A DNA stretch of 64,000 bases from Escherichia coli. GTDB taxonomy: Bacteria > Pseudomonadota > Gammaproteobacteria > Enterobacterales > Enterobacteriaceae. The DNA lies in NCBI RefSeq assembly GCF_003018115.1, contig NZ_CP027457.1; one strand, written 5' to 3'. How positions within the stretch are numbered: the stretch's first letter is position 1; each line of letters opens with the position of its first letter. The notes beneath the pieces were generated by a model. It did no database searches. It saw nothing but the letters and a program-made list of their open reading frames with translations, and was not told the origin of the DNA. Below are positions 17,968-40,643 of the stretch, piece by piece. The position numbers were made by a program, and so were the translations under genes.

Positions 17968-17980
17968 TGATTAGCTTTCG

Positions 17981-18062
17981 TAGGTCTGATAAGACGCGGC
18001 AGCGTCGCATCAGGCATTGTGCTCGATTGCCGGATGCGGCGTGAACGCCTTATCCGGCCTGG
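17981..18062. repeat. REP element pair (BIME)
   Basis: taggtctgataagacgcggcagcgtcgcatcaggc and gccggatgcggcgtgaacgccttatccggcc palindromic units between hybG and yghU. Confidence 0.75.
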
Positions 18063-18082
18063 ATGGCTTGCTGCGACGAACG

Positions 18083-18955: not shown

Positions 18956-19159
18956 AGTGAGTTGCCTTCTGAGTGGTAGTGTTGAAGCAGTGTAGCAGGT
19001 CACTTGCTGTACAGAATGTGAATTTTTTAACCCTTTGCGCCAGCCGCTGCGATGAGGTGTATGATTAGTCTGACCTCTGTCCGGTTAATGTCGCTGAGCA
19101 GGTAATCAGAGCACAACAATTACGCCAACTGCTTAGGTTGTATTGTTAAAGGTAAAGTG

Positions 19160-21019: not shown

Positions 21020-21035
21020 TACATGTTGTAGCAAT

Positions 21036-21068
21036 CCCGTACTGATTATGAAGAATAGTCAGTACGGG
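21036..21068 (+). terminator. candidate terminator after gss
   Basis: perfect 10-bp inverted repeat cccgtactga ... tcagtacggg with 13-nt loop; weak U-tract. Confidence 0.35.
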
Positions 21069-21310
21069 GATTAATCAAAATATTCAATATTTATATATTC
21101 AAATATTTATTCATTTCATATGTGAATACATTAACCAGCAGAATGCCTGTGTTCTAATTATTTCTAAAGATTTTTAATGAATGCTTATTGTCTGATACAC
21201 AAGAAATAACACTCTTTTTATCGTTAAAAAATGATATTTCACTTTGCCCACACCGTTAAAGTCACTGATAATGCGTCCGTTCGTAAATTCAAAATGGCGT
21301 AATCTAATAT

Positions 21311-22810: not shown

Positions 22811-22819
22811 CCTTCCTGA

Positions 22820-22856
22820 AAATGCCCGGTCCTGGCGATCGGGCATTTCCATTTTT
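22820..22856. terminator. terminator between convergent pitB and yghT
   Basis: hairpin aaatgcccg-N11-cgggcattt followed by ccattttt. Confidence 0.5.
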
Positions 22857-22858
22857 GG

Positions 22859-23551
22859 CTAGTGATAACCACGCGCGGTCATAAAATCCGTAATCGCTTT
22901 TTCTGCATCAACCAACACCTGTTCCAGTGGCTGATTGGCATCGATATCAACCAGTTGTGCACCACCAAAGGTTAACTGTGGCGTTATGGCAATCTTCCTC
23001 GCCAGCGATTCCCGTTTATGGTCGGGTTTACGCGCGCAGGCCACGTCTAGATCGACATTGAGTTTGATGACCAGATCAGGCTTATGGCTCGCCATCCAGT
23101 GAAACGCTTTACGTTCCTGGCTTGCCAGCCATGAGACAAAACGACCACCTTCAACGTTAGGTGGGAACACCGTACCATCGTAAGCGCCAGGAATTTGGTC
23201 CTGAGGATAACGGTCGGTTAGAACAATTAACCCGCGACGACGACAGGCAAGCATATGACGAAAGCGCAGTAAGCGACGGGCGACAAACGCTGTAATTACC
23301 AGCGCCGGAACTGGTCCTGGCAATTTTTTTGCTGTTTTCACCTGATTTCGTTCAATTGTTTTATGTAAGGATTTTCCCATCAACGGTAATTTTGTCACTG
23401 CACGACCGACATTTCCGGCTTGTTTTCCTAAATGAACTCTTTCGGCAGCACCATATTTTTCGACAACGGTAATGAGATGTTCACACACCGTTGACTTGCC
23501 AGAACCATCGCTACCAATAACGGCAATTAATGGAGGTGTTATTGACTGCAT
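22859..23551 (-). CDS. yghT: P-loop NTPase/kinase-like protein (YghR/S/T paralog family)
   Basis: 230 aa; Walker [10 protein letters not shown]; DRYPQ motif; paralogous to the two downstream ORFs. Confidence 0.85.
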
Positions 23552-23724
23552 GAATATATCCTTAAATTTAAATATCCATCCAAAATATTTATTTGGTTAA
23601 TATGTTTTTATGAAAGCGTAATTCAGGTCAATGTCACAATTAACCATTGTCACAATAAGGTTGAACGGATATTCTGAGCACGGACCACGTAATATTCAAT
23701 ACATTATTTACTGCCGGGTTTTTC

Positions 23725-24438
23725 GTGAATCAACGTAATATGTCAATAATTAATTCCACGCCAGTGCGTGTTATTGCCATTGTAGGATGTGATGGTTCAG
23801 GTAAATCGACCCTCACGGCAAGCCTGGTAAATGAACTGGCAGCAAGAATGCCAACAGAACGCATTTATCTCGGGCAATCGTCCGGGCGAATTGGCGAATG
23901 GATTTCACAGCTCCCTGTTATTGGCGCACCTTTTGGGCGTTATCTGCGAAGTAAAGCGGCACATGTGCACGAAAAGCCCTCAACACCGCCTGGCAATATT
24001 ACTGCGCTGGTTATCTATCTGCTTTTCTGCTGGCGGGCGTACAAGTTTCGCAAAATGTTGTGTAGAAGCCAGCAAGGCCATCTGCTCATCACCGACCGCT
24101 ACCCGCAGGTTGAAGTGCCGGGTTTTCGCTTTGATGGCCCGCAATTGGCAAAAACCACGGGCGGTAACGGTTGGATAAAAATGTTAAGGCAGCGCGAGTT
24201 GAAGCTGTACCAATGGATGGCGTCTTATTTACCCGTATTGTTGATTCGTCTTGGCATTGATGAACAAACCGCGTTTGCGCGTAAACCTGACCACCAACTG
24301 GCAGCGTTACAGGAAAAAATCGCCGTTACGCCGCAATTGACATTCAATGGCGCAAAGATCCTTGAACTGGATGGTCGGCAACCAGCCGATGAAATTCTGC
24401 AAGCGTCACTACGCGCAATTCACGCCGCGCTTTCCTGA
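23725..24438 (+). CDS. yghS: P-loop NTPase/kinase-like protein (YghR/S/T paralog family)
   Basis: 237 aa from GTG start (alternative ATG at 23740); Walker A GCDGSGKST; DRYPQ; ARKPDH motif shared with paralogs. Confidence 0.85.
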   Translation: MNQRNMSIINSTPVRVIAIVGCDGSGKSTLTASLVNELAARMPTERIYLGQSSGRIGEWISQLPVIGAPFGRYLRSKAAHVHEKPSTPPGNITALVIYLLFCWRAYKFRKMLCRSQQGHLLITDRYPQVEVPGFRFDGPQLAKTTGGNGWIKMLRQRELKLYQWMASYLPVLLIRLGIDEQTAFARKPDHQLAALQEKIAVTPQLTFNGAKILELDGRQPADEILQASLRAIHAALS

Positions 24439-24469
24439 TCACCAAAATGGATAGGGGATGATTTAACGA

Positions 24470-25228
24470 ATGGATGCACTACAAACACAAACTGTTATTA
24501 GTACAACCGCGCCACAGCCCAACTACATTCCGGGGCTGATTGCGGTGGTCGGGTGTGATGGCACCGGTAAATCCACACTGACCACCGACCTAGTGAAATC
24601 GCTGCAACAACACTGGCAAACCGAGCGGCGCTATCTGGGGCTGCTCTCCGGCGAAGACGGCGACAAAATCAAACGATTGCCGTTGGTTGGCGTCTGGCTG
24701 GAACGGCGACTGGCGGCCAAATCCTCGAAAACCCAAAGCATGAAAACCAAATCTCCGGCGCTATGGGCGGCGGTGATTATGTACTGCTTCTCGCTGCGAA
24801 GAATGGCGAATCTACGCAAGGTTCAGCGACTGGCGCAAAGTGGCGTTCTGGTGGTCAGCGATCGCTTCCCGCAGGCTGAAATTTCGGGCTTTTATTATGA
24901 CGGACCGGGGATTGGCGTCGAACGTGCGACCGGGAAAATCAGCATGTTTCTGGCGCAGCGCGAACGGCGTTTATACCAACAAATGGCGCAATATCGCCCG
25001 GAATTAATTATTCGCCTGGGCATTGATATTGAGACTGCCATCTCCCGCAAGCCTGACCATGACTATGCCGAGCTGCAGGACAAAATCGGCGTCATGTCGA
25101 CGATTGGCTATAACGGCACAAAAATTCTTGAGATTGATTCCAGAGCGCCCTACAGCGAAGTGCTGGAACAGGCACAGAAGGCGGTTTCTCTGGTTGCCAT
25201 CGCTTCTGACCGCCGAAGTTTAACTTAA
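24470..25228 (+). CDS. yghR: P-loop NTPase/kinase-like protein (YghR/S/T paralog family)
   Basis: 252 aa; Walker A GCDGTGKST; DRFPQ; SRKPDH. Confidence 0.85.
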   Translation: MDALQTQTVISTTAPQPNYIPGLIAVVGCDGTGKSTLTTDLVKSLQQHWQTERRYLGLLSGEDGDKIKRLPLVGVWLERRLAAKSSKTQSMKTKSPALWAAVIMYCFSLRRMANLRKVQRLAQSGVLVVSDRFPQAEISGFYYDGPGIGVERATGKISMFLAQRERRLYQQMAQYRPELIIRLGIDIETAISRKPDHDYAELQDKIGVMSTIGYNGTKILEIDSRAPYSEVLEQAQKAVSLVAIASDRRSLT

Positions 25229-25273
25229 GGCTGGCGGGATACTTTTTACTATCAACGATAAGGTCAGGCTGAA

Positions 25274-26623
25274 TTGGCGGGTTTTAACATCAAACATTGG
25301 TTTGCAGATGGCGCGTTTCGCACCATTATTCGCAATAGCGCCTGGTTAGGCTCCAGTAATGTCGTGAGCGCCTTGCTGGGGCTGTTGGCGCTCTCGTGTG
25401 CCGGTAAAGGGATGACGCCCGCCATGTTTGGCGTACTGGTGATTGTGCAATCGTACGCCAAGTCGATCAGCGATTTTATTAAGTTTCAGACATGGCAGCT
25501 GGTGGTTCAGTACGGAACGCCAGCCTTGACCAACAATAATCCGCAGCAATTTCGCAATGTCGTCTCATTTTCCTTCTCGCTGGATATCGTCAGCGGCGCG
25601 GTGGCGATTGTCGGCGGCATTGCCTTACTGCCATTCCTTTCCCATTCATTAGGTCTGGATGACCAAAGCTTTTGGCTGGCGGCGCTGTATTGCACGCTCA
25701 TTCCTTCAATGGCTTCCTCCACGCCGACCGGCATTCTGCGTGCGGTAGATCGCTTTGATTTGATTGCTGTACAGCAGGCGACGAAACCTTTTCTGCGCGC
25801 AGCGGGGAGCGTCGCAGCCTGGTATTTTGACTTTGGTTTTGCGGGTTTTGTTATTGCCTGGTACGTGTCGAATCTGGTTGGCGGCACCATGTACTGGTGG
25901 TTTGCCGCGCGCGAATTACGCCGCAGAAATATCCATAACGCCTTCAAATTGAATCTGTTTGAGTCTGCCCGACACATTAAAGGCGCGTGGAGTTTTGTCT
26001 GGTCAACCAACATTGCCCACTCCATCTGGTCGGCGCGTAACTCGTGCAGCACAGTGTTGGTGGGGATCGTGTTAGGACCCGCTGCCGCCGGGTTATTTAA
26101 AATCGCCATGACATTCTTCGACGCCGCCGGAACGCCAGCGGGTTTGCTGGGTAAAAGTTTTTACCCAGAGGTGATGCGTTTAGATCCGCGCACCACCAGA
26201 CCGTGGTTGTTAGGCGTGAAGTCCGGTTTACTGGCGGGCGGAATCGGTATTCTGGTGGCGCTCGCGGTGTTGATCGTCGGCAAGCCGCTCATTTCGCTGG
26301 TATTTGGCGTTAAGTATCTCGAAGCGTATGACCTGATTCAGGTGATGCTGGGCGCAATTGTGATCTCGATGCTGGGCTTCCCGCAGGAGTCATTGCTATT
26401 GATGGCGGGAAAACAGCGCGCTTTTCTCGTGGCGCAAACCATCGCCTCAATCGGCTACATCGTATTGCTGTTCATGTTCTGTCATCTGTTTGGCGTGCTG
26501 GGGGCTGCATTTGCTTACTTCGTTGGGCAATGTCTGGATGTGGTGCTCTCGTTAATTCCAACCTTAAAGGCATTTTTTCAGCGCCATTCCTTGCTTTATA
26601 ACGCAGCCGGAGAGAAATCCTGA
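25274..26623 (+). CDS. yghQ: MOP/Wzx-like polytopic membrane flippase-family protein
   Basis: 449-codon hydrophobic ORF from TTG at 25274 (true start may be the internal Met at about 25412); recognised as YghQ-like; stop overlaps the next ORF start (ATGA). Confidence 0.8.
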   Translation: MAGFNIKHWFADGAFRTIIRNSAWLGSSNVVSALLGLLALSCAGKGMTPAMFGVLVIVQSYAKSISDFIKFQTWQLVVQYGTPALTNNNPQQFRNVVSFSFSLDIVSGAVAIVGGIALLPFLSHSLGLDDQSFWLAALYCTLIPSMASSTPTGILRAVDRFDLIAVQQATKPFLRAAGSVAAWYFDFGFAGFVIAWYVSNLVGGTMYWWFAARELRRRNIHNAFKLNLFESARHIKGAWSFVWSTNIAHSIWSARNSCSTVLVGIVLGPAAAGLFKIAMTFFDAAGTPAGLLGKSFYPEVMRLDPRTTRPWLLGVKSGLLAGGIGILVALAVLIVGKPLISLVFGVKYLEAYDLIQVMLGAIVISMLGFPQESLLLMAGKQRAFLVAQTIASIGYIVLLFMFCHLFGVLGAAFAYFVGQCLDVVLSLIPTLKAFFQRHSLLYNAAGEKS

Positions 26624-27447
26624 TGATGAGAAAATATTTCCCGCTTGAGGCGAGCGAGCGTCTATTTGTTGCGATTGAAGAAGATGATGTCGTTGATGCA
26701 CAGGTTAGTTTGCCGCCGACTATTGCACTAAGTTGTACCACCGAAATCATTCATGATAATTACGCGTTATGCCTGCAATTCTGGCTCAATGGCGTTAATC
26801 GTCAGGAATTACTGCGTTTAGTTCGCAAACAAGCCAAAGGCGATGAGCTGACTGCTGATGAGCGCAAACAATTTAAATACATGCGAGCGCGCTACAAGCA
26901 CCTGCGTTTTGCGCAACGGCTGTATTTAAAGAAGCATCAGGCCGGATTTTTATTCGGCAAAACGACCGTTTTTCTGGGACGTTTTCAGGACGGATTTCGT
27001 AACGGTAAGAAAAATATTGTGTCGTATTACGGCAACCTGTTACGAATTTATTTAAGCTCTCCGGTCTGGTCGTTGGTGAACTATTCATTACGCCATAGCC
27101 AGTTAGAAAGCGTAAGCGGTTTTATTGCCTATCGGCAAAAGCAAATGCATACCCTGAAAGAGATTATTGCCAAACCGCGACTAACCGGCAGGGAATTTCA
27201 TGATGTGCGAAAAATCATCAGCCAGCAGGTTTCTTATTACGACACCTTAAGATCGCTTGATCCTGAAAATAAAGAGGCGTTACAGATTTCCCGTTTCCTC
27301 GCCGCCATTAATGGCCTGATGGGGGATAAACACGACGACATGGTAGCGGATGATATGGAAAACCGCCAGTCGTATGATGCACCGGTGGCGCTGGATAGCG
27401 ATATTCGCCAGCGCTTAGAGCTGCTGATTTCGCGTTTTCCGCTATAA
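26623..27447 (+). CDS. hypothetical protein, basic, no recognisable motif
   Basis: 274-aa ORF translationally coupled to yghQ (ATGA overlap); no signal peptide or TM segment apparent. Confidence 0.6.
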   Translation: MMRKYFPLEASERLFVAIEEDDVVDAQVSLPPTIALSCTTEIIHDNYALCLQFWLNGVNRQELLRLVRKQAKGDELTADERKQFKYMRARYKHLRFAQRLYLKKHQAGFLFGKTTVFLGRFQDGFRNGKKNIVSYYGNLLRIYLSSPVWSLVNYSLRHSQLESVSGFIAYRQKQMHTLKEIIAKPRLTGREFHDVRKIISQQVSYYDTLRSLDPENKEALQISRFLAAINGLMGDKHDDMVADDMENRQSYDAPVALDSDIRQRLELLISRFPL

Positions 27448-27455
27448 CCGGAGCA

Positions 27456-28019
27456 ATGATGTCATCTCGTTTGATTATTGCGCTGATTATCATGCTCTTA
27501 GCCCCGGGTGTGCAGGCACACAATTTCGTCACTGGCAAAACGGTTACCCCTGTTTATATTCAGGAAGGCGGCGAGCTGCTTCTGAATAGCGACGACGAAA
27601 TTCACTACCAAAAGTGGAACAGCACACAATTGGCGGGAAAAGTCCGCATTATCCAGTATATCGCCGGGCGTAAGTCGGCGAAGAAAAAGAACTCACTGTT
27701 AATTAAAGCGGTTGAAGCGGCAAACTTTCCGCAGGATCGTTTTCAGCCCACCACCATTGTGAACACCGATGATGCCATCTTTGGTACTGGCTATTTTGTT
27801 GTTGGCAAAATCGAAAAAAATAAACGCCGCTATCCGTGGGCGCAATTCGTTATCGACGGCAATGGACAGGGACGCGTTGCCTGGCGCTTGCCGGAGCAGA
27901 GTTCAACCATTCTGGTGCTGGATAAAGCCGGGCAAATTCAGTGGGCAAAGGACGGCAGCCTGACGCCGGAAGAGGTAGATCATGTCATTGCGCTGGCGCA
28001 GAAACTGATCAATGAATAA
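27456..28019 (+). CDS. secreted/periplasmic protein, YtfJ-family-like
   Basis: 187 aa; N-terminal signal peptide (MMSSRLIIALIIMLLAPGVQA/HN); resembles E. coli YtfJ as recalled (TTIVNTDDAI...YPW..F..D.NG, QWAKDG.LTPEEV). Confidence 0.6.
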   Translation: MMSSRLIIALIIMLLAPGVQAHNFVTGKTVTPVYIQEGGELLLNSDDEIHYQKWNSTQLAGKVRIIQYIAGRKSAKKKNSLLIKAVEAANFPQDRFQPTTIVNTDDAIFGTGYFVVGKIEKNKRRYPWAQFVIDGNGQGRVAWRLPEQSSTILVLDKAGQIQWAKDGSLTPEEVDHVIALAQKLINE

Positions 28020-28049
28020 AAAATTCAAAGGATTGAGGGCGTTAGTGAG

Positions 28050-29120
28050 ATGAAGCTGGTTGAACACTACATCATGCGTGGTACGCGCCGTCTGGTGCTG
28101 ATTATCGTCGGTTTTCTGATCTTTATTTTCGCCAGCTACTCCGCACAGCGTTATCTGACCGAAGCGGCAAATGGGACATTAGCTCTTGATGTTGTGCTGG
28201 ATATCGTTTTCTACAAAGTGCTGATTGCACTGGAGATGTTGTTACCTGTTGGTCTGTATGTGTCAGTTGGCGTGACGCTAGGGCAGATGTATACCGACTC
28301 GGAAATTACCGCTATCTCTGCGGCGGGGGGCAGTCCGGGACGCTTGTACAAAGCCGTTCTTTATCTGGCGATACCGCTAAGTATTTTTGTCACCCTTCTG
28401 TCGATGTATGGTCGTCCGTGGGCTTATGCGCAGATTTATCAACTGGAGCAGCAGTCGCAGTCGGAGCTGGATGTTCGCCAGTTGCGGGCAAAGAAATTTA
28501 ACACTAACGATAACGGACGAATGATCCTTTCGCAGACGGTTGATCAGGATAATAATCGCCTGACTGACGCGCTGATTTATACTTCTACTGCCAATCGAAC
28601 CCGCATTTTCCGCGCCCGTTCGGTTGATGTGGTTGACCCATCACCCGAGAAACCGACCGTTATGTTGCACAACGGCACTGCCTATCTTCTCGATCATCAG
28701 GGTCGTGACGACAACGAACAGATCTACCGTAATCTGCAATTACATCTGAATCCGCTGGATCAAAGCCCTAACGTCAAACGCAAAGCAAAATCGGTCACGG
28801 AGCTGGCGCGCTCCGCCTTTCCTGCCGATCATGCCGAACTGCAATGGCGACAAAGCCGTGGCCTGACAGCATTGTTGATGGCGCTGCTGGCCATTTCATT
28901 AAGTCGGGTAAAACCGCGGCAGGGGCGATTTTCAACGTTATTGCCACTGACGTTGCTGTTTATTGCCATTTTTTATGGCGGCGACGTCTGCCGTACGCTG
29001 GTGGCTAACGGCGCGATTCCTCTCATTCCTGGTTTGTGGTTAGTGCCCGGACTCATGCTAATGGGCCTGCTGATGCTGGTTGCACGCGACTTCACTTTGC
29101 TGCAGAAATTTTCCCGATGA
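28050..29120 (+). CDS. LptF-like permease (YjgP/YjgQ family)
   Basis: 356 aa; N-terminal TM bundle then soluble domain then C-terminal TMs; LGQMYTDSEITAISAAG matches the LptF signature region as recalled (LGKLYTESEITVMHACG). Confidence 0.75.
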   Translation: MKLVEHYIMRGTRRLVLIIVGFLIFIFASYSAQRYLTEAANGTLALDVVLDIVFYKVLIALEMLLPVGLYVSVGVTLGQMYTDSEITAISAAGGSPGRLYKAVLYLAIPLSIFVTLLSMYGRPWAYAQIYQLEQQSQSELDVRQLRAKKFNTNDNGRMILSQTVDQDNNRLTDALIYTSTANRTRIFRARSVDVVDPSPEKPTVMLHNGTAYLLDHQGRDDNEQIYRNLQLHLNPLDQSPNVKRKAKSVTELARSAFPADHAELQWRQSRGLTALLMALLAISLSRVKPRQGRFSTLLPLTLLFIAIFYGGDVCRTLVANGAIPLIPGLWLVPGLMLMGLLMLVARDFTLLQKFSR

Positions 29121-30196
29121 ATGTTTTCAGTCGCTATTTAATCCGTCATCTCTTTCTCGGTTTTGCCGCCGCCGCAGGGCTATTGCTGCCGCTTTTTACC
29201 ACCTTCAACCTGATTAACGAACTGGATGATGTCAGCCCGGGCGGTTATCGCTGGACTCAGGCGGTGCTGGTGGTGCTAATGACCTTACCGCGCACACTGG
29301 TCGAACTTTCGCCGTTTATCGCCTTATTGGGAGGGATTGTCGGCCTGGGGCAGTTATCGAAAAACAGTGAGCTTACCGCCATTCGCAGCATGGGGTTTTC
29401 TATCTTCCGTATTGCACTGGTGGCGCTGGTTGCCGGGATATTGTGGACTGTTTCGTTAGGCGCGATAGATGAGTGGGTAGCGTCGCCGTTGCAGCAACAG
29501 GCGCTGCAAATCAAATCGACCGCCACTGCGTTGGGGGAGGACGATGATATTACCGGCAATATGCTTTGGGCCAGGCGCGGTAATGAATTTGTAACGGTGA
29601 AATCGCTGAACGAGCAGGGCCAGCCGGTGGGCGTGGAGATATTTCATTATCGCGACGATCTCTCGCTCGAATCCTACATTTATGCACGCAGTGCCACCAT
29701 TGAAGACGACAAAACGTGGATCCTGCATGGTGTGAATCATAAAAAATGGCTGAATGGCAAAGAAACGCTGGAAACATTAGATAATCTTGCCTGGCAATCG
29801 GCCTTCACCAGTATGGATCTTGAAGAGTTATCAATGCCGGGCAATACTTTTTCTGTCCGTCAGCTTAATCATTACATCCATTATTTGCAGGAAACCGGGC
29901 AACCCAGCAGCGAATACCGCCTTGCACTGTGGGAAAAACTGGGGCAACCCATCCTGACCCTGGCGATGATTTTGCTGGCTGTGCCGTTTACCTTTAGTGC
30001 CCCGCGCTCGCCAGGGATGGGTAGCCGTCTCGCTGTAGGTGTCATCGTTGGCTTACTCACCTGGATCAGCTATCAAATCATGGTCAATCTGGGATTGCTA
30101 TTTGCGTTGAGCGCACCTGTTACCGCGCTCGGTTTACCGATAGCGTTTGTGCTGGTGGCGTTGAGCCTGGTGTATTGGTATGACAGACAACATTAA
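29117..30196 (+). CDS. LptG-like permease (YjgP/YjgQ family)
   Basis: 359 aa from ATG at 29117 (MNVFSRYLIRH...), overlapping upstream stop by 4 nt; NSELTAIRSMGFS resembles LptG RSELVVMQASGF. Confidence 0.75.
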   Translation: MNVFSRYLIRHLFLGFAAAAGLLLPLFTTFNLINELDDVSPGGYRWTQAVLVVLMTLPRTLVELSPFIALLGGIVGLGQLSKNSELTAIRSMGFSIFRIALVALVAGILWTVSLGAIDEWVASPLQQQALQIKSTATALGEDDDITGNMLWARRGNEFVTVKSLNEQGQPVGVEIFHYRDDLSLESYIYARSATIEDDKTWILHGVNHKKWLNGKETLETLDNLAWQSAFTSMDLEELSMPGNTFSVRQLNHYIHYLQETGQPSSEYRLALWEKLGQPILTLAMILLAVPFTFSAPRSPGMGSRLAVGVIVGLLTWISYQIMVNLGLLFALSAPVTALGLPIAFVLVALSLVYWYDRQH

Positions 30197-30230
30197 ACCC
30201 GCCGTGGCGCAACACCACAGCGGGCTCACA

Positions 30231-31403
30231 TTACTGCTTCAGAGTAGCGAACGCTTGAATGATGGCATCAATTTGCTCACGACTGTGGGCAGCGTTTACG
30301 CTACAGCGCAGCAGCGTGATGCCTGCAGGCGCGGCAGGTGGCAGGATAAGATTCACATAAACGCCCAGCGAAATAAGCTCGCGCCAGATGCGTAAACCTT
30401 CCTCTTTCGAACCGATTATTACCGGCACTACCGGGCTAATATGTGAACTTAACTCATAACCCAGTTTTTGCAGACCGTCATACAGATGGTTGGCGTTATC
30501 CATCAGCTTTTGCCGCAGCTCTGGTTGTGTGGCAATGGTTCTTAACGACGAGCGCACGGTCGCAATGCAGGACGGAGAAGGAGAGGCGGTAAAAATATAC
30601 GGGCGGCTGCCGTAGCGCAGCACTTCCATCGCTTCCGAACCGACAGCAAAACCGCCAATCGAGGCCAGACTTTTACTGAAGGTACCAACGATAATATCCA
30701 CATCATCTTCAACGCCAACGGCTTCAGCCAGTCCGCGCCCCGTTGCGCCTAACACGCCAAACGAATGCGCTTCATCGACAATCAAATAACCACCGAGACG
30801 ACGTTTGATATCAACAATTTCCGCCAGCGGCGCAACGTCACCGAGCATGCTGTAGATGCCCTCAACGATGATAATCGCCTCTTTCGCCCGTTCACCGAGG
30901 CGAACCATGCGCCGTTCCAGATCTTTAGCATCGTTATGGCGGAAACGAATAATTTCCGCGCCACCGAGAGAACAGGCGTCATAAATACTGGCGTGGCTGT
31001 CGGCATCCAGTAACACCACGGCGTTATGGTCGGCAAGTGCGCTGATGACGCCTAAATTAGCGGTATAACCGGTTGAAAAAACGATAGCGGTAGGGCGATT
31101 GAAAAACTCGGCAATCTCTTTCTCTAACGCCAGGTGCGGCGCATAACTGCCGTTTGCCATACGAGAACCGGTGGTGCCGGTGCCTTGGGCCGCTAACGCT
31201 GTCTGACCTTCGGCGATGGCATCATGATTAAAGGTTAAACCGAGGTAATTATTGGTCCCGGCCAGAATCACTTTTTTATTGCCGATCCGGCCTTCGGTGG
31301 CGGAATACACTTCATCAATACAGGTGCCAAACGGTGTTAACCCATTGTCACTAAATTGCAGTCGCTCGCCAGCAAGGCGCGCATATTTATCATATAGCCC
31401 CAT
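30231..31403 (-). CDS. alpha-oxoamine synthase family PLP enzyme, serine palmitoyltransferase-like
   Basis: 390 aa; class-II aminotransferase fold with PLP-lysine motif GTFSKSLASIGGF; encoded immediately downstream of a dedicated ACP. Confidence 0.8.
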   Translation of the reverse strand: MGLYDKYARLAGERLQFSDNGLTPFGTCIDEVYSATEGRIGNKKVILAGTNNYLGLTFNHDAIAEGQTALAAQGTGTTGSRMANGSYAPHLALEKEIAEFFNRPTAIVFSTGYTANLGVISALADHNAVVLLDADSHASIYDACSLGGAEIIRFRHNDAKDLERRMVRLGERAKEAIIIVEGIYSMLGDVAPLAEIVDIKRRLGGYLIVDEAHSFGVLGATGRGLAEAVGVEDDVDIIVGTFSKSLASIGGFAVGSEAMEVLRYGSRPYIFTASPSPSCIATVRSSLRTIATQPELRQKLMDNANHLYDGLQKLGYELSSHISPVVPVIIGSKEEGLRIWRELISLGVYVNLILPPAAPAGITLLRCSVNAAHSREQIDAIIQAFATLKQ

Positions 31404-31651
31404 TATTTATTCTCCAGCCATGGAAGTAGAGTTTCCATTAATTGCGCAGGGGTTTTGACATCCAGCAGAATATTAATAGGAATGGAAATATCGAATCTGT
31501 CTTCCAGCATCATTAAGAGATCCATCACTTTGATCGACTCCAGGCCAAGATCGTTGACGAGATCGCTGTCGGGCTTAATTTCCACACCGTTTTCGACCAA
31601 ATCCTGTAAACAGGAAAGGATGTAATCCATTACTATTTCACGATTTACCAT
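31403..31651 (-). CDS. acyl carrier protein
   Basis: 82 aa, acidic; phosphopantetheine-site motif DLGLESI; shares a boundary nucleotide with the downstream synthase gene. Confidence 0.75.
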   Translation of the reverse strand: MVNREIVMDYILSCLQDLVENGVEIKPDSDLVNDLGLESIKVMDLLMMLEDRFDISIPINILLDVKTPAQLMETLLPWLENK

Positions 31652-31682
31652 AGAAACGTTAACACACCTTTAAACAAGACAA

Positions 31683-32597
31683 TCAAAATAGCCCGTTGCG
31701 TAATGCGTGTTCCAGGCTAATCCCGGGAAACCAATTAATATCTTCAGAAATACGGTTATTACTTGCCGACCAGTCGGCGTGGGTTAATTCACGAATTTTC
31801 GAGCGGGTCAGCATAGGTTCTTTACCTGCCAGGCGGCTCAACGCGGTACTGATATCCGCAAGGCAGGTGAGTACCGGCAGAGGAATGCCAACCATTCGCA
31901 CGGAACCACAACGGGCGTCGGCGGCAAGTTGCTGTACGCGTTGCCAGTCATAGCCGCCAGCGACGCCATCGCATAATTCATAGGTTTGCGTCTGTACAGT
32001 TTCGGCGCTTAACCACTGACCCACTGCTTGCGCGAAATCGGTGACGTGCAGGAAAGAGAGCTGTGTATCTGGCGCACCAAGTCGTGGCAGCAGGCCGCGC
32101 AGCATCCAGTCAAACAGCGGTTTTAACTCTTTATCGCCGGGGCCATACACGGCTGTCGGGCGAAAAACGCCCAGCGTAATTTTGTCAGCCATTGCAGTCA
32201 GCCGTTGTTCGGCGACGTATTTGGAATTTGCGTACCAGGAGAGTTCGGGATGGCGCGCCGCCAGCGAAGAGATAAACAGAAAACGTTGGCAAAAACCGCT
32301 CTCTTTTGCCGCCTGCATCAGGCGCAGACTGCCGTCAACGTTACAGCGGGTGAAAATCTCTTCTTTGTGCCCGCGCACTTGTCCGGCGCAATGAACCACC
32401 GCGCTGGCTCCGGCAACCAGTTCGCTAAGCGAATGTGTATCTTCCAGCGAACCGCGCACCCAGGTGAGATTATCATTGACGTGAGCGCGGGCAGTACGCG
32501 TCAATGCGCGAACGTGAAAGCCGCGGGCGAGCAGGTTATTGATAATATATTTACCGATAAACCCGGTAGCGCCCGTCACCGCGACAGTTTGATTCAT
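31683..32597 (-). CDS. NAD(P)-dependent epimerase/dehydratase-family SDR (candidate keto-reductase)
   Basis: 304 aa; N-terminal Rossmann motif VTGATGFIGK; start overlaps stop of upstream acyl-ACP synthetase (ATGA). Confidence 0.8.
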   Translation of the reverse strand: MNQTVAVTGATGFIGKYIINNLLARGFHVRALTRTARAHVNDNLTWVRGSLEDTHSLSELVAGASAVVHCAGQVRGHKEEIFTRCNVDGSLRLMQAAKESGFCQRFLFISSLAARHPELSWYANSKYVAEQRLTAMADKITLGVFRPTAVYGPGDKELKPLFDWMLRGLLPRLGAPDTQLSFLHVTDFAQAVGQWLSAETVQTQTYELCDGVAGGYDWQRVQQLAADARCGSVRMVGIPLPVLTCLADISTALSRLAGKEPMLTRSKIRELTHADWSASNNRISEDINWFPGISLEHALRNGLF

Positions 32598-34327
32598 GCC
32601 AGGGATTCCTGCACATGAAGGCTTGCAGCATAAGCCTTCTGATAACGTTTTTTCGCTTCCGCACGGGCAGGCTTGCCGGAGGACGTTCGGGGAATGCTGT
32701 GGGGCGGCAACAGATCGATAGCCGCGGTCACGCCAAATTCGCTTTGGATCCGTGCTGCCAGCGCGTGGATAAGCTGCCCGCGACGTTCTTCATCGCTGAT
32801 CCGACACTGGATCTGCAAAATGATTTTTTCCTGGGCGGTAACAAAAGCAATCGCATCGCCAGAATGAATTTCCGGTTCCTGTTCCGCTATATATTCAATA
32901 TCCTGCGGCCAGATATTACGGCCACGAATAATAATCAGATCTTTAATGCGTCCGGTGACATACAGATAACCGTCCAGCAGATAACCGAGGTCGCCAGTGT
33001 CTAACCAGCCCGTCGCGGCAATCTCGTCTTGCGAAGCCTGGTCGCCAAAGTAACCGCTCATCAGACTGGGACCGGAGATGCAAATATGGCCTACCACACG
33101 TTCCGCGACCGGCATACCTGCTTCATTGCGGATTTCAATACCATGTTCCGGCAACGCTTTGCCGCAGTTGACGAAAGTCGATACGGCGCGTGTCTCTGCA
33201 CCCGGCGCGACGGCTTTACCCTGATATTCGAGGATGTCGCGATCCACTTCGTTAACCACAACCCCGGAGGCTTCATCAGAGAAGCTGACAGCCAGCGCAT
33301 TTTCTGCCAGTCCGTAGCACGGCATGAAAGTTTTATTGTCAAAGTTAACCTGACGGAAACATTCAGCGAATTGATGGAGTTGTTCTGCGGAGATGGGTTC
33401 TGCACCAATACCAGCGACGCGCCAGCAGGAAAGATCCAGTTCAGCGAGATCTTTTTCATTCACGCGGCGCTGGCACAATTCATAGCCAAACGGCGGCGCA
33501 ACGGAAACGGTGCCGCGATTTTTACTGATCAATTTAAGCCATTGCAGAGGACGCATGGCAAAATCCTGAGTGCGCAAATAATCTACTGAAAGTTGCGTGG
33601 CGACGGGGGTCAGGAGAAAGCCGACCAGTCCCATATCATGGTAGAAAGGCAGCCAGGAGACGCAGCGGTCGCCAGGGCGTAATTTAATGCCATCGTGGCT
33701 TATGGCGCGTAGATTAGCCATCACTTCGCGGTGAGTGATAATGACGCCACGGGGAAAACGGGTGCTGCCGGAGGTGTACTGGAGGTAGGCGATATCGTTC
33801 GGAACTGGACGCTGGAGCGCAACATCGGCTTCCGGTAATGCCTTAAACCAGGCGTGGCTTAAAACATGTAATTCGGGGTTGTTGTTATGCGTCGCGGCAT
33901 TGACCAGCGGTAACCACTCATCACCAGTGATAATGGCTGCGGGCTGGCAACTTGCCAGTAAACCCTGCAGTTTGGCGCTCCAGGAATCCCGCTGACCGAC
34001 GCCCATTGGAATCGCCAATGGTACGGCAACTAATCCAGCATACTGACAGGCAAAAAATGCCTCGACAAACCCGCTACTGGTTTCGGCAATCAGCGCCACG
34101 CGATCGCCTTTTTTCAGGTTTAGCGATAACAACCGCTTCGCACCAGCTTCGGCACGCGCTTTTAACGTCTGATATTCCAGTTGATCTTCAAGTTGGCAAC
34201 GTCTGTCATAAAAATTCATTCCAGCGCTACTCAGAGCGGCGTAGTCCAAAGCATCAACCAGCGTTGGAAAATCGGCATAGCGCATAGGTAGGGAATGCGT
34301 AAAGATTTTATTAGACATATACACCAC
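32594..34327 (-). CDS. fatty acyl-AMP ligase / acyl-ACP synthetase (adenylate-forming enzyme)
   Basis: 577 aa; AMP-binding core motif YTSGSTRFPRGV and downstream GYG/TGD adenylation motifs; first gene of a 4-gene minus-strand operon. Confidence 0.8.
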   Translation of the reverse strand: MVYMSNKIFTHSLPMRYADFPTLVDALDYAALSSAGMNFYDRRCQLEDQLEYQTLKARAEAGAKRLLSLNLKKGDRVALIAETSSGFVEAFFACQYAGLVAVPLAIPMGVGQRDSWSAKLQGLLASCQPAAIITGDEWLPLVNAATHNNNPELHVLSHAWFKALPEADVALQRPVPNDIAYLQYTSGSTRFPRGVIITHREVMANLRAISHDGIKLRPGDRCVSWLPFYHDMGLVGFLLTPVATQLSVDYLRTQDFAMRPLQWLKLISKNRGTVSVAPPFGYELCQRRVNEKDLAELDLSCWRVAGIGAEPISAEQLHQFAECFRQVNFDNKTFMPCYGLAENALAVSFSDEASGVVVNEVDRDILEYQGKAVAPGAETRAVSTFVNCGKALPEHGIEIRNEAGMPVAERVVGHICISGPSLMSGYFGDQASQDEIAATGWLDTGDLGYLLDGYLYVTGRIKDLIIIRGRNIWPQDIEYIAEQEPEIHSGDAIAFVTAQEKIILQIQCRISDEERRGQLIHALAARIQSEFGVTAAIDLLPPHSIPRTSSGKPARAEAKKRYQKAYAASLHVQESLA

Positions 34328-34689
34328 GAAAAAATTGGATATCCAAAATAAAATGACAATAATGCGGTGGATTATATAGGCATAAAAGATAAATGAGATA
34401 GTATTTTCATCAGTGTGAAAATGAACATTGATTTAAATAATGAGTTTAAGTTTTTTTGTTTTTATTGTGAATGATATTTAATTTATGAATATATTAAGAA
34501 GAAGCCTTGTCCGGTCGCCTTAAATCGACAAAAGGCATTGTGGCGCTTCTGTGTAGTCGCTGACCTTATCGTAATCATTAATAAATACTATTTATTCGTC
34601 GTTTGTATTCATTGGGTTGATTATTAAGGTGCCGTTCGTTGCTGTTGCAACCTGTTTGTCACCGTTAATTATTTGTTACCCACAGAACT
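34328..34689. promoter_or_regulatory. AT-rich divergent control region (lipid operon / yghO)
   Basis: 362-bp intergenic region of markedly low GC between divergently oriented genes. Confidence 0.45.
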
Positions 34690-35832
34690 ATGGAATGCGA
34701 TCTGCTGATGATTAAAATTGAAAAAGTAATAAATAAAAACGACTTAAAGGCATTTATCGCTTTTCCGTCATCACTTTATCCCGACGATCCAAACTGGATA
34801 CCCCCTTTATTCATTGAACGCAACGAGCATTTGTCTGCGAAAAATCCGGGGACGGACCATATCATCTGGCAGGCGTGGGTGGCAAAAAAAGCGGGGCAGA
34901 TAGTTGGGCGTATTACCGCGCAAATAGATACCTTGCACCGCGAGCGTTACGGCAAAGATACCGGTCATTTCGGCATGATTGACGCCATTGATGATCCGCA
35001 GGTTTTTGCCGCGTTGTTTGGCGCAGCGGAAGCGTGGTTGAAGTCCCAAGGTGCAAGTAAGATCAGCGGTCCTTTCAGCCTGAATATCAATCAGGAAAGC
35101 GGATTACTGATTGAAGGTTTTGACACACCACCCTGTGCGATGATGCCACACGGCAAACCGTGGTATGCCGCGCATATTGAACAACTGGGTTATCACAAAG
35201 GCATTGATTTACTGGCGTGGTGGATGCAGCGAACCGATCTCACTTTCTCTCCGGCGCTAAAAAAACTGATGGATCAGGTGCGCAAAAAGGTGACCATTCG
35301 CTGCATCAATCGCCAGCGGTTTGCCGAAGAGATGCAGATCCTGCGTGAGATTTTCAACTCTGGCTGGCAACACAACTGGGGATTTGTGCCGTTTACCGAA
35401 CATGAATTCGCGACCATGGGCGATCAACTTAAATATCTGGTGCCGGACGATATGATCTACATCGCTGAGATTGATTCTGCACCCTGCGCGTTTATTGTCG
35501 GCTTGCCGAACATCAACGAGGCGATTGCCGATCTGAACGGATCGCTCTTTCCCTTCGGCTGGGCAAAATTGCTGTGGCGTTTGAAAGTCAGCGGTGTGCG
35601 AACTGCGCGAGTACCGCTGATGGGCGTGCGCGACGAGTATCAGTTCAGCCGCATCGGCCCGGTGATTGCGCTGTTATTGATTGAAGCCTTACGCGATCCG
35701 TTTGCCCGCCGGAAGATCGATGCGCTGGAGATGTCATGGATCCTCGAAACCAATACAGGCATGAATAACATGCTGGAACGCATTGGGGCGGAGCCGTACA
35801 AGCGTTACCGATTGTATGAAAAGCAGATTTAA
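34690..35832 (+). CDS. yghO: GNAT-superfamily-like acyltransferase (full-length YghO)
   Basis: 380-codon ORF (start possibly at internal Met, 34708); position corresponds to yghO next to glcC; acyltransferase assignment is tentative. Confidence 0.65.
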   Translation: MECDLLMIKIEKVINKNDLKAFIAFPSSLYPDDPNWIPPLFIERNEHLSAKNPGTDHIIWQAWVAKKAGQIVGRITAQIDTLHRERYGKDTGHFGMIDAIDDPQVFAALFGAAEAWLKSQGASKISGPFSLNINQESGLLIEGFDTPPCAMMPHGKPWYAAHIEQLGYHKGIDLLAWWMQRTDLTFSPALKKLMDQVRKKVTIRCINRQRFAEEMQILREIFNSGWQHNWGFVPFTEHEFATMGDQLKYLVPDDMIYIAEIDSAPCAFIVGLPNINEAIADLNGSLFPFGWAKLLWRLKVSGVRTARVPLMGVRDEYQFSRIGPVIALLLIEALRDPFARRKIDALEMSWILETNTGMNNMLERIGAEPYKRYRLYEKQI

Positions 35833-35838
35833 TACCAG

Positions 35839-36603
35839 CTAACTCAGGTTCATCTCCAGCGGCACCGCCGAGCGAATCAAATGGTGGCCTTCCAGCTCGA
35901 TATCGTGGAGATTCTTTTTCACGGTCCGCACATGATCGCGTGCTGCGCGCTGGGCGACGTGCGGCAGCCGCTGCAACACCGCGTTGTAGATCCGCGCATG
36001 CTGGCGATCGATCTGCTTTTTTTGCTGTGGTCGATGGTAGAGATTATTTACGCTGGCAAACACTGAATTAAACATCAGGTCGGTCAATGATTGCAGCGTA
36101 AACACCAGCACCTGATTGTGAGAAGCCTGACAAATGGCGAGATGGAAAGCGTGATCCAACTGCGCATGTTCGATCAGCGAAATCTCTTTGTTGTTCTCAC
36201 TGGCGGCGAGCATTTTTTCATAACAGCGGGTTATCACAACAAAATCAGCCTGCGTTCCCAGCGTTGCCGCCAGCCTTGCCGATTCGCCCTCCAGCAATGC
36301 GCGAACGTCGAGCAGATCGTACAGCGTTCGCGGCTGCGTGCTGAACAGATGAATTAGCGGGCTGGTGTCCTGCACCCGATTAAGCCGTGCGACACGAGAA
36401 TCGCGACCCTGCGCCGTTTCAATAATCCCGCGCCCGCGCAGCACGGTCAGCCCTTCACGCAGTGCGGAGCGTGAGAAGCCGAGCTTTTCACACAGTCGAC
36501 GTTCCGAGGGAAGCGGCTGACCGACCTTCAGTACGCCGTCGATAATTAACCGTTCGATACTCTCTGCAACCACTTCGCAAATAGGGCGACGTTCATCTTT
36601 CAT
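35839..36603 (-). CDS. glcC: GntR/FadR-family transcriptional activator of the glc operon
   Basis: ORF trimmed to Met at 36603 (MKDERRPICEV...) giving 254 aa; divergent from glcD. Confidence 0.9.
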   Translation of the reverse strand: MKDERRPICEVVAESIERLIIDGVLKVGQPLPSERRLCEKLGFSRSALREGLTVLRGRGIIETAQGRDSRVARLNRVQDTSPLIHLFSTQPRTLYDLLDVRALLEGESARLAATLGTQADFVVITRCYEKMLAASENNKEISLIEHAQLDHAFHLAICQASHNQVLVFTLQSLTDLMFNSVFASVNNLYHRPQQKKQIDRQHARIYNAVLQRLPHVAQRAARDHVRTVKKNLHDIELEGHHLIRSAVPLEMNLS

Positions 36604-36853
36604 TCCCGGACCTCGTGCACAGGTAGGACCAATTTTTCTGTACTTAACTCGCAAAACACGCACATCACGTAAGTGATTATGTTACATCAATTTAACATTG
36701 AGTTAACCAAGGCAAGGTCACAGAGCTGGAAAAAAAATGGTCTGACCGGTAGCTAAAGAGATAGACGAAAACGAAAAGCCCGCTTAATAACTGTTCACAG
36801 AAGCAGCGCGCAAAAATCAGCTGCCACACAACACAACTAAGCGAAGCCTACTC
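36604..36853. promoter_or_regulatory. glcC / glcDEFGBA divergent promoter region
   Basis: 250-bp intergenic region between divergent regulator and operon; sites not resolved. Confidence 0.45.
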
Positions 36854-38353
36854 ATGAGCATCTTGTACGAAGAGCGTCTTGATGGCGCTTTACCCGATGT
36901 CGACCGCACATCGGTACTGATGGCACTGCGTGAGCATGTCCCTGGACTGGAGATCCTGCATACCGATGAGGAGATCATTCCTTACGAGTGTGACGGGTTG
37001 AGCGCGTATCGCACGCGTCCATTACTGGTTGTTCTGCCTAAGCAAATGGAACAGGTGACAGCGATTCTGGCTGTCTGCCATCGCCTGCGTGTACCGGTGG
37101 TGACCCGTGGTGCAGGCACCGGGCTTTCTGGTGGCGCGCTGCCGCTGGAAAAAGGTGTGTTGTTGGTGATGGCGCGCTTTAAAGAGATCCTCGACATTAA
37201 CCCCGTTGGTCGCCGCGCGCGCGTGCAGCCGGGCGTGCGTAACTTGGCGATCTCCCAGGCCGTTGCACCGCATAATCTCTACTACGCACCGGACCCTTCC
37301 TCACAAATCGCCTGTTCCATTGGCGGCAACGTGGCAGAAAATGCCGGCGGCGTCCACTGCCTGAAATATGGTCTGACCGTACATAACCTGCTGAAAATTG
37401 AAGTGCAAACGCTGGACGGCGAGGCACTGACGCTGGGATCGGATGCGCTGGATTCGCCTGGTTTTGACCTGCTGGCGTTGTTCACCGGATCGGAAGGTAT
37501 GCTCGGCGTGACCACCGAAGTGACGGTAAAACTGCTGCCGAAGCCGCCCGTGGCGCGGGTTCTGTTAGCAAGCTTTGACTCGGTAGAAAAAGCCGGACTT
37601 GCGGTTGGTGACATCATCGCCAATGGCATTATCCCCGGCGGGCTGGAGATGATGGATAACCTGTCGATCCGCGCGGCGGAAGATTTTATTCATGCCGGTT
37701 ATCCCGTCGACGCCAAAGCGATTTTGTTATGCGAGCTGGACGGCGTGGAGTCTGACGTACAGGAAGACTGCGAGCGGGTTAACGACATCTTGTTGAAAGC
37801 GGGCGCGACTGACGTCCGTCTGGCACAGGACGAAGCAGAGCGCGTACGTTTCTGGGCCGGTCGCAAAAATGCGTTCCCGGCGGTAGGACGTATCTCCCCG
37901 GATTACTACTGCATGGATGGCACCATCCCGCGTCGCGCCCTGCCTGGCGTACTGGAAGGCATTGCCCGTTTATCGCAGCAATATGATTTACGTGTTGCCA
38001 ACGTCTTTCATGCCGGAGATGGCAACATGCACCCGTTAATCCTTTTCGATGCCAACGAACCCGGTGAATTTGCCCGCGCGGAAGAGTTGGGCGGGAAGAT
38101 TCTCGAACTCTGCGTTGAAGTTGGCGGCAGCATCAGTGGGGAACATGGCATCGGGCGAGAAAAAATCAATCAAATGTGCGCCCAGTTCAATAGCGATGAA
38201 ATCACGACCTTCCATGCGGTCAAGGCGGCGTTTGACCCCGATGGTTTGCTGAACCCTGGGAAAAACATTCCCACGCTACACCGCTGTGCTGAATTTGGTG
38301 CCATGCATGTGCATCACGGTCATTTACCTTTTCCTGAACTGGAGCGCTTCTGA
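36854..38353 (+). CDS. glcD: glycolate oxidase FAD-binding subunit
   Basis: 499 aa; FAD-linked oxidase family. Confidence 0.94.
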   Translation: MSILYEERLDGALPDVDRTSVLMALREHVPGLEILHTDEEIIPYECDGLSAYRTRPLLVVLPKQMEQVTAILAVCHRLRVPVVTRGAGTGLSGGALPLEKGVLLVMARFKEILDINPVGRRARVQPGVRNLAISQAVAPHNLYYAPDPSSQIACSIGGNVAENAGGVHCLKYGLTVHNLLKIEVQTLDGEALTLGSDALDSPGFDLLALFTGSEGMLGVTTEVTVKLLPKPPVARVLLASFDSVEKAGLAVGDIIANGIIPGGLEMMDNLSIRAAEDFIHAGYPVDAKAILLCELDGVESDVQEDCERVNDILLKAGATDVRLAQDEAERVRFWAGRKNAFPAVGRISPDYYCMDGTIPRRALPGVLEGIARLSQQYDLRVANVFHAGDGNMHPLILFDANEPGEFARAEELGGKILELCVEVGGSISGEHGIGREKINQMCAQFNSDEITTFHAVKAAFDPDGLLNPGKNIPTLHRCAEFGAMHVHHGHLPFPELERF

Positions 38354-39405: not shown

Positions 39406-39415
39406 GGAGCAGGCT

Positions 39416-40639: not shown

Positions 40640-40643
40640 CAAA

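Follow-up and report, generated by a model that had tools for sequence, protein, structure and literature searches.

A probable sphingolipid synthesis and export locus, intact in most Escherichia coli genomes, and its IS5-associated loss from K-12

One important question raised by the yghQ-yghO region of Escherichia coli is whether the model strain K-12 has lost a system that other strains keep there and, if so, what that system makes. The question was addressed with a 64,000-nucleotide stretch of E. coli contig NZ_CP027457.1 (hereafter the window), in which the first-pass annotation had noticed coding sequence between yghQ and yghO and had described the same place as disrupted by the insertion sequence (IS) IS5 in K-12. 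The observation was confirmed with small corrections, and the interpretation given to it was partly supported. Positions 22859-35832 of the window very probably hold an intact copy of the Escherichia form of the proteobacterial sphingolipid locus, which is ancestral in the genus, combines ceramide synthesis with Lpt-like export and in K-12 has lost 8.4 kb at an IS5 element. Both the locus and its core enzymology have been published before, and this is therefore a known locus rather than a new one.

The MG1655 sequence (NC_000913.3, positions 3124000-3140000, reverse complement) was aligned to the window by BLASTN. Two collinear blocks were obtained, window 17683-26342 at 98.1% identity and window 34732-40875 at 99.0%, and between them MG1655 carries a 1195-bp IS5 (IS5LO/insH9). 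Base-by-base reading of the junctions placed the missing interval as follows, with an ambiguity of 1 nt:

26342-34729, no strand: interval of ~8,388 bp replaced by IS5 in K-12 (MG1655 alignment and base-by-base reading).

The K-12 junctions read ...GACCTGATTTAG, then IS5, then TTAATAAAAATG..., with the left flank ending in GATTTAG; across the same site the window reads ...GACCTGATTCAG GTGATG...(8.4 kb)...AAGTAA TAAATAAAAACG... The loss comprises the final 94 codons of yghQ, eight entire genes (encoding a CHAD-fold protein, a YtfJ paralog, a pair of LptF and LptG paralogs, Spt, an acyl carrier protein (ACP), a CerR-type reductase and a fatty acyl-AMP ligase), the presumed promoter region of yghO and the first 13-14 yghO codons. 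K-12 was thus found to lack these genes, and its locus is indeed disrupted. The details given in the first-pass annotation held in part: yghO does adjoin IS5 and yghQ, but the gene flagged as truncated by the NCBI pipeline is yghQ, which keeps 355 of its 449 codons and is cut after codon 355, and not yghO (b2981), which the current MG1655 annotation gives as a coding sequence that reaches 70 nt into IS5 and does not mark as a pseudogene.

In the window all genes of the locus are open. Eight complete open reading frames (ORFs) fill the 8,066 bp that separate the yghQ stop (26623) from the yghO start (34690), in agreement with the ~8 kb of coding sequence before a full-length yghO reported in the first-pass annotation. 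That annotation had also seen no transposase or IS ends in the locus; accordingly, BLASTN gave no IS5 match anywhere in the 64 kb, and no transposase is present among the features of the near-identical annotated record NZ_CP024269.1 (E. coli F8111-1SC3), which differs from window 21000-40000 by 5 single-nucleotide polymorphisms in 19 kb. The gene order in that record is pitB, yghT, yghS, yghR, yghQ, a hypothetical gene, a YtfJ-family gene, lptF, lptG, spt, ACP, an NAD-dependent epimerase/dehydratase gene, a fatty acyl-AMP ligase gene, yghO, glcC and glcD.

This difference might also be read in the opposite direction, with the 8.4 kb as a horizontally acquired island of the present strain and K-12 as the original empty state, hit by an unrelated IS5 insertion. 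Homologous modules do sit elsewhere in other genera, next to dgkA in Serratia and to uspA/pitA in Pluralibacter (gene tables and pairwise BLASTP), and these differing chromosomal contexts indicate that the module moved during enterobacterial evolution. However, K-12 keeps the truncated halves of two genes whose missing parts lie in the window, and a survey of 5,426 complete E. coli genomes, as the first-pass annotation had proposed, found the K-12-missing segment at a coverage of at least 80% in 4,063 (75%), with some match in 4,271. Its identity among E. coli genomes is core-like (96-98%) and it always lies between yghQ and yghO. The G+C content of the locus (~0.51) is normal, and neither a tRNA gene nor an integrase nor repeats were present at the segment borders. 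The orthologs extend to E. albertii, and modules with shared synteny were seen in Serratia, Pluralibacter, Pseudocitrobacter, Hafnia, Erwinia, Rosenbergiella and Mangrovibacter. The insertion-in-this-strain model was rejected on account of the truncated K-12 gene halves, the 75% presence, the E. albertii segment and the intermediate deletion of strain CY706 described below, and we consider it extremely improbable. The intact state, found in the majority of the genomes and also in E. albertii and further Enterobacterales, is therefore the ancestral one, and the segment is no island acquired by the present strain.

The next question is how the K-12 deletion arose. The 4-bp flanks of the K-12 IS5 are unequal, TTAG on the left (yghQ cut after codon 355) and TTAA on the right (yghO at codon 14), and the element is therefore no simple insertion. 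Strain CY706, whose YghR, YghS and YghT proteins are identical to those of K-12, has the same left IS5 junction, but after IS5 its sequence continues at window 27699, so that only 1.36 kb (window 26342-27698) is deleted, up to a TTAA inside the ytfJ-like gene, and the remaining locus is present. A second IS5 lies inside its acpR gene (window ~31438-31441), flanked by a normal TTAA duplication:

2806-4000 and 7744-8938 of the CY706 stretch, same orientation: two IS5 copies, one with the K-12 left junction, the other a simple insertion in acpR.

The 5' end of yghO in CY706 reads GTAATTAATAAAAATG and contains the TTAA target at which the K-12 deletion ends. The sharing of the K-12 left junction with a smaller deletion indicates that an IS5 end anchored in yghQ gave nested rightward deletions. 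In K-12, the 8.4 kb to the right of this IS5 would have been lost up to the TTAA in yghO codon 14, leaving yghT, yghS, yghR, yghQ' and 'yghO as orphans. An IS-associated deletion, as had been suspected from the window alone, is thus supported by an IS5 exactly at the breakpoint, by genes truncated on both sides, by the unequal flanks and by the nested CY706 deletion. A single IS at the breakpoint, non-matching 4-bp flanks and truncation of both neighbouring genes are likewise found in deletions formed in E. coli K-12 next to an IS or by recombination between two IS copies; unlike in those cases, here a natural relative keeps a shorter deletion from the same anchored end.

The deletion could be the product of intramolecular transposition or of recombination with a second IS5. 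For the latter, homologous recombination between directly oriented copies in yghQ and at the yghO TTAA in place of a one-step adjacent deletion from a single IS5, we put the chances slightly short of even. CY706 holds two IS5 copies of the same orientation in the locus, one of them with the normal TTAA duplication, so that the substrate for recombination exists in a relative of K-12; the right flank in K-12 coincides exactly with a TTAA site that is found in the CY706 allele; and the right K-12 junction was found in 351 of the complete genomes against 342 for the left (all 50 among the matches listed were K-12-type laboratory strains or derivatives). On the other hand, no genome with IS5 at the yghO TTAA and an otherwise intact locus turned up, no search having been aimed at it; the same flanks are expected from an adjacent deletion; and the one fixed end that the K-12 and CY706 deletions have in common is the classic signature of deletions anchored at an IS end. 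With either route, position 26339 of the window (yghQ codon 356) is T in K-12 and CY706 (TTAG) and C in every intact genome (TCAG). This T gives rise to an in-frame TAG stop and at the same time to a target of the IS5 type, and it is seen only beside IS5.

In order to establish what K-12 has lost, the products encoded in the locus were compared with curated families, starting with the genes for ceramide synthesis:

30231-31403, minus strand: spt, serine palmitoyltransferase (NF047599, 600 bits, cut-off 500); absent from K-12.
31403-31651, minus strand: acpR, dedicated acyl carrier protein of 82 aa (ACP models); absent from K-12.
31683-32597, minus strand: cerR/epi, NAD(P)-dependent extended short-chain dehydrogenase/reductase (SDR), presumed 3-oxo reductase (family-level matches); absent from K-12.
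32594-34285, minus strand: aasR, fatty acyl-AMP ligase loading AcpR (NF006624, 868 bits, cut-off 600), ORF open; absent from K-12.
34286-34689, no strand: divergent aasR-yghO intergenic region of 404 bp, A+T-rich (GC 0.41); deleted in K-12.
34690-35832, plus strand: yghO, 380 aa, tandem-GNAT N-acyltransferase, bCerS/aca candidate; K-12 lacks codons 1-13/14.

Spt contains the lysine-bearing motif GTFSKS. The attachment serine of AcpR lies in DLGLESI, and acpR is directly upstream of spt, with a 1-nt overlap with the spt start. CerR gave family-level SDR/epimerase matches only. YghO has a predicted tandem-GNAT fold and is a GNAT-fold N-acyltransferase orthologous to Caulobacter CC_1154, as expected of a bCerS protein; its family comprises 6,502 representatives, no Pfam match was obtained and a sequence search of the PDB gave no significant match. 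The MG1655 product name of YghO, 'putative DNA-binding transcriptional regulator', is not supported by this fold and was rejected. YghO was also among the candidate GNATs screened for lysine acetyltransferase activity, and was not found named as a positive (PMC6199490). The region between aasR and yghO is presumed to hold promoters or regulatory sites, and its promoter-like matches were not above chance when counted against shuffled sequence.

The gene neighbourhood was analysed in 80 loci from a species-level genome collection, 57 of them long, with a radius of 10 kb around the YghO homolog. At least one of spt, cerR, aasR, lptF2 and lptG2 was present within this distance in 52 of the 57 long loci, cerR being linked to spt in 32; this linkage, together with the place of the gene in the cluster, speaks for its assignment. 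One linked locus belongs to a Caulobacter sp. metagenome-assembled genome (MAG), in which a YghO homolog of 45% identity lies beside lptG2 and spt.

The same genes have been described by Padilla-Gomez et al. (2022), who reported that the serine palmitoyltransferase subgroup occurs in E. coli B (ETEC B7A, an enterotoxigenic E. coli, and BL21(DE3)) and named them aca (cerS), which is yghO (ECD_02850), aasR (ECD_02851), epi (cerR; ECD_02852), acpR (ECD_02853) and spt (ECD_02854) (PMC9386255). In that work AcpR of E. coli B carried 4'-phosphopantetheine, AasR was functional with its cognate AcpR, and AasR, AcpR and Spt jointly made 3-oxo-sphinganine from serine in vivo and in vitro; spots migrating like sphinganine or ceramide, seen upon overexpression, were ascribed to intrinsic BL21 enzymes (PMC9386255).

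The remaining genes of the locus lie at lower window positions than spt, mostly on the opposite strand:

22859-23551, minus strand: yghT, P-loop (dTMP-kinase-like) protein, first of three paralogs (weak matches); kept in K-12.
23725-24438, plus strand: yghS, P-loop paralog (weak P-loop matches; ORF).
24470-25228, plus strand: yghR, P-loop paralog (weak P-loop matches; ORF).
25274-26623, plus strand: yghQ, full-length, 449 aa, TTG start, multi-pass membrane protein of the MOP/Wzx flippase superfamily (NCBIfam MOP flippase, E 7e-9); K-12 keeps codons 1-355.
26623-27447, plus strand: all-helical CHAD-fold protein of 274 aa, its start codon overlapping the yghQ stop; absent from K-12.
27456-28019, plus strand: ytfJ2, second copy of a YtfJ-family periplasmic protein (TIGR01626, 215 bits, cut-off 151); absent from K-12.
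28050-29120, plus strand: lptF2, LptF-family permease paralog (TIGR04407, 319 bits, cut-off 230); absent from K-12.
29117-30196, plus strand: lptG2, LptG-family permease paralog (TIGR04408, 308 bits, cut-off 240); absent from K-12.
30194-30228, no strand: G+C-rich hairpin of 16 pairs between the convergent lptG2 and spt (consensus scan).

The plus-strand genes from yghS through yghR, yghQ, the CHAD-fold gene, ytfJ2 and lptF2 to lptG2 are separated by 31, 45, -1, 8, 30 and -4 nt. This spacing suggests two convergent units, the one just given, with yghS as its probable first gene, and aasR-cerR-acpR-spt on the opposite strand. Terminator-like counts were no higher than in shuffled sequence, and only the hairpin at 30194-30228 stands out; it is likely a bidirectional terminator.

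LptF2 and LptG2 score only 94 bits against the solved E. coli LptF (6mhu_F) and 145 bits against E. coli LptG (6mhu_G), and for this reason they are regarded as paralogs; the pair adjoins spt. No LptB-type ATPase is present in the locus: none of the 13 products passes an ABC ATPase model, and YghR, YghS and YghT give sub-threshold P-loop matches only. YghQ has hydrophobic segments, its Serratia ortholog matches Pfam Polysacc_synt, and YghQ homologs of 25-30% identity adjoin spt in beta- and gammaproteobacterial MAGs; it is a candidate inner-membrane flippase for the lipid.

At this point a product other than a sphingolipid has to be weighed, namely an alpha-hydroxyketone signal of the CqsA/LqsA type, an amino-lipid or a lipopolysaccharide modification, with the Lpt-like genes duplicating lipopolysaccharide export. 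Spt belongs to the alpha-oxoamine synthase family, which is also the home of CqsA, BioF and Kbl, and the NCBI annotation pipeline (PGAP) labels yghQ 'lipopolysaccharide biosynthesis protein' and the permeases LptF and LptG. Nevertheless, the serine palmitoyltransferase model was the only equivalog that Spt passed, its scores with the CqsA-type (220, cut-off 428) and BioF (334, cut-off 426) models being below the cut-offs; the E. coli B enzyme makes 3-oxo-sphinganine from serine; the scores of LptF2 and LptG2 against the true E. coli LptF and LptG are low; and both paralogs are linked to bCerS homologs in 31-34 of the 57 long loci. A non-sphingolipid product is therefore very improbable.

With a sphingolipid as the favoured product, the closest systems are the E. 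coli loci already published and that of Caulobacter. The E. coli B/BL21(DE3) genes ECD_02850-02854 and the locus of E. coli UTI89, drawn with lptF2 and lptG2 in Figure 2B of the preprint of Uchendu, Isom and Klein (2026), are the same locus, with an identical arrangement of the five ceramide genes (yghO / aasR-cerR-acpR-spt) and with the lptF2-lptG2 pair, and nothing essential differs from the window (10.64898/2026.04.12.717747). The Caulobacter crescentus locus CC_1152-CC_1168 / CCNA_01212-01226 likewise has Spt, AcpR, AasR, CerR, bCerS, LptF2 and LptG2 without an LptB of their own, and a putative flippase. Olea-Ozuna et al. (2024) proposed LptC2, LptF2 and LptG2 together with the flippase as sphingolipid transporters in Caulobacter (PMC11324152). 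The 2026 preprint reports that Caulobacter LptF2 and LptG2 form a complex, that they bind the single LptB of the cell, and that they are essential only when anionic sphingolipid is made (10.64898/2026.04.12.717747).

The cluster in the window, unlike that of Caulobacter, contains no CpgB (an LCB5/DAGK-type kinase), CpgA (CDP-alcohol-type), CpgC, nucleotidyltransferases CC_1152 and CC_1153, CC_1158 or LptC2; with NCBIfam and Pfam, the Caulobacter head-group domains were found in none of the 13 products of window 22859-35832. In place of the head-group genes it has the three P-loop paralogs, the CHAD-fold protein and the YtfJ paralog. YghR, YghS and YghT show weak dTMP-kinase/P-loop matches, far below curated cut-offs. 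They were also considered as CpgB homologs, a candidacy that was rejected because CpgB belongs to the LCB5/DAGK family and is not a P-loop protein. YghR is 69% identical to a Serratia liquefaciens protein encoded between yghQ and spt, and a sequence search of the PDB gave no significant match; in Serratia, Erwinia, Rosenbergiella and Mangrovibacter yghT remains linked to spt although the order of the genes is shuffled. The 274-aa protein has the two-four-helix-bundle fold of CHAD domains. For this protein no Pfam model, that of CHAD included, matched at E <=10, the PDB sequence search gave no significant match, and its family counts 344 members in a large protein collection, nearly all from Enterobacterales. 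It differs from the known, polyphosphate-binding CHAD domains (Ricinus 6qv5, Streptomyces PptA 6rn5 and E. coli YgiF) in leaving the Pfam CHAD model unmatched, in having no CYTH partner and in that its gene belongs to a lipid locus, where it shows translational coupling to the gene of a membrane flippase. YtfJ2 has a signal-like hydrophobic segment at residues 1-22, and for it too the PDB sequence search found no significant match.

The P-loop, CHAD-fold and YtfJ genes occur alongside those for ceramide synthesis in E. coli, Pseudocitrobacter, Pluralibacter, Hafnia, Serratia, Erwinia, Rosenbergiella and Mangrovibacter, even where the order is shuffled. Outside Enterobacterales two partial exceptions were found, Pseudomonas marginalis, with a single P-loop homolog near spt, and Luteibacter. 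In two Luteibacter loci (19806-21112) a partial yghQ homolog (62% identity) and a CHAD-fold homolog (51%) lie 10 kb from the YghO homolog, and no spt was present within the 10 kb examined.

The following pathway is proposed. AasR would adenylate a long-chain fatty acid and load it onto the dedicated carrier AcpR, and Spt would join acyl-AcpR and L-serine into 3-oxo-sphinganine, both steps having been demonstrated with the orthologs of E. coli B. Homology and synteny suggest that YghO, as a bCerS-type enzyme, N-acylates the long-chain base and that CerR reduces the 3-oxo group, giving dihydroceramide; the order of these two steps is disputed even in Caulobacter. YghQ would then flip the lipid across the inner membrane and, by analogy with Caulobacter LptF2 and LptG2, the E. 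coli pair, having no ATPase of its own, would borrow the housekeeping LptB and extract the lipid towards the outer membrane. A part in modifying or handling the head group is probable for YghR, YghS, YghT, the CHAD-fold protein and YtfJ2, whose genes accompany the core set in Enterobacterales.

Another question is whether such a pathway is maintained in E. coli. Between the window and E. coli SCPM-O-B-8794, the ratio of nonsynonymous to synonymous substitution rates (dN/dS) is 0.02-0.13 for all ten genes at dS values of 0.13-0.64, and this low ratio despite recurrent loss indicates strong purifying selection, by which the locus is maintained. In the same comparison dS was 0.13-0.64 per gene across the locus and 0.22 in glcC. 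Values of 0.13-0.64 are far above those usual within E. coli, and SCPM-O-B-8794 may come from a divergent Escherichia lineage.

Losses were nonetheless found in several lineages. O157:H7 has lost the whole region: remnants of IS3/IS66 truncate pitB, behind them lies an efa1/lifA-like (TcdA/TcdB glycosyltransferase) island, and this junction is present in 296 complete genomes. In the O157:H7 strain BB24-1, the whole side from yghT to glc had no match in the stretch 8311-17836 (compare window 21311 onward). This loss arose independently of that in K-12. Insertions of ISVsa5 or of ISKpn26 (IS5 family) were seen inside the segment matching window 26343-34731 in NZ_CP046009.1 and NZ_AP027666.1. Together with IS1-associated lesions and those of K-12 and O157:H7, they indicate that loss of the locus is recurrent.

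Several points weigh against an intact, ancestral and working sphingolipid locus. It is lost or interrupted in about a quarter of the complete genomes (IS5 in K-12, IS3/IS66 in O157:H7, IS1, ISVsa5, ISKpn26). In the nearest complete genome, F8111-1SC3 (NZ_CP024269.1), aasR is interrupted by a nonsense codon, TAG where window 33981 (codon 102) has TGG (Trp), and the ligase is annotated there as a pseudogene. The literature search gave no sphingolipid from the native, unforced locus in any E. coli, and the empty-vector BL21(DE3) hosts, used as negative controls, were without product (PMC9386255), from which the locus seems to be silent in LB medium at 30°C. The roles given to YghQ, YghR, YghS, YghT, the CHAD protein and YtfJ2 come only from gene neighbourhood. 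As for the deletion, the K-12 T allele at window 26339 was found in no intact locus, the best full-length matches carrying one mismatch, and the predicted progenitor, with IS5 at the yghQ site and no deletion, was found in none of the 5,426 genomes (synthetic junction query, 80% coverage). The absence of the T allele from intact loci indicates that the change either is confined to the lineage with IS5 or came about together with the insertion.

The frequent independent losses and IS insertions, the nonsense codon, the missing reports of E. coli sphingolipids and the negative BL21 controls, together with the A+T-rich divergent promoter region, which is typical of silenced genes, would all fit a silent, decaying relic that makes no lipid under any natural condition and whose loss from K-12 was inconsequential. 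However, dN/dS values of 0.02-0.13 across ten genes at the dS found are incompatible with neutral decay, the ORFs are intact in thousands of genomes, and the E. coli B enzymes are active when expressed, intrinsic BL21 activities appearing to convert 3-oxo-sphinganine further. A relic is therefore unlikely, and a selectively maintained sphingolipid locus is preferred.

A side observation concerns another part of the window. Positions ~45763-62413 hold a complete type II secretion system (T2SS-beta) with SslE (sslE, pppA, gspS2 and gspC to gspM/yghD). By annotation comparison, MG1655 keeps only yghD, an 861-nt yghE, yghF and yghG, with ~8 kb (gspD to gspK) missing, which is a second K-12 deletion within the same 64 kb.

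The first-pass annotation had described the system as essentially unstudied. This does not hold in general, given that the E. coli B genes were named and three of them tested (PMC9386255) and that lptF2 and lptG2 of UTI89 were drawn in the 2026 preprint (10.64898/2026.04.12.717747); it holds only for the native product, regulation and physiology in E. coli. The literature search gave no report of a native lipid product, regulation or phenotype in E. coli itself and, subscription papers apart, no text in which the endpoints of the K-12 deletion are spelled out. In the accessible text of the E. coli B and UTI89 papers, the K-12 endpoints, the population frequency, yghR, yghS and yghT, the CHAD-fold protein and the YtfJ paralog are not discussed. 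With the locus and its core enzymology published, the value added here is modest and consists of exact deletion endpoints, the frequency of the locus in the population, the nested deletions anchored at IS5 and the set of conserved accessory genes.

A further reading, which we hold only tentatively and think rather doubtful, is that most natural E. coli, including uropathogenic, enterotoxigenic and B strains, and many other Enterobacterales are able to produce an outer-membrane sphingolipid with a head group unlike the phosphoglycerate lipids of Caulobacter. It would be built or handled by a lineage-specific accessory set made up of the three membrane-proximal P-loop kinase-like paralogs YghR, YghS and YghT, the CHAD-fold, probably phosphate-polymer-binding, protein coupled to YghQ, and the periplasmic YtfJ paralog, which may stand in for the missing LptC2. 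On this view the system would by chance be absent from both of the most-studied lineages, K-12 and O157:H7.

Textbooks use E. coli to exemplify a simple bacterial membrane, made of three phospholipids and free of sphingolipids. This picture derives from K-12, which has a deletion scar where about three quarters of the complete genomes keep a selectively maintained locus that very probably serves ceramide synthesis and export. The deletion gives a concrete explanation for five orphan 'y' genes of K-12, yghO, yghQ, yghR, yghS and yghT. K-12 and O157:H7 are both unrepresentative in this respect, and natural isolates or a restored K-12 are the right background in which to study the system.

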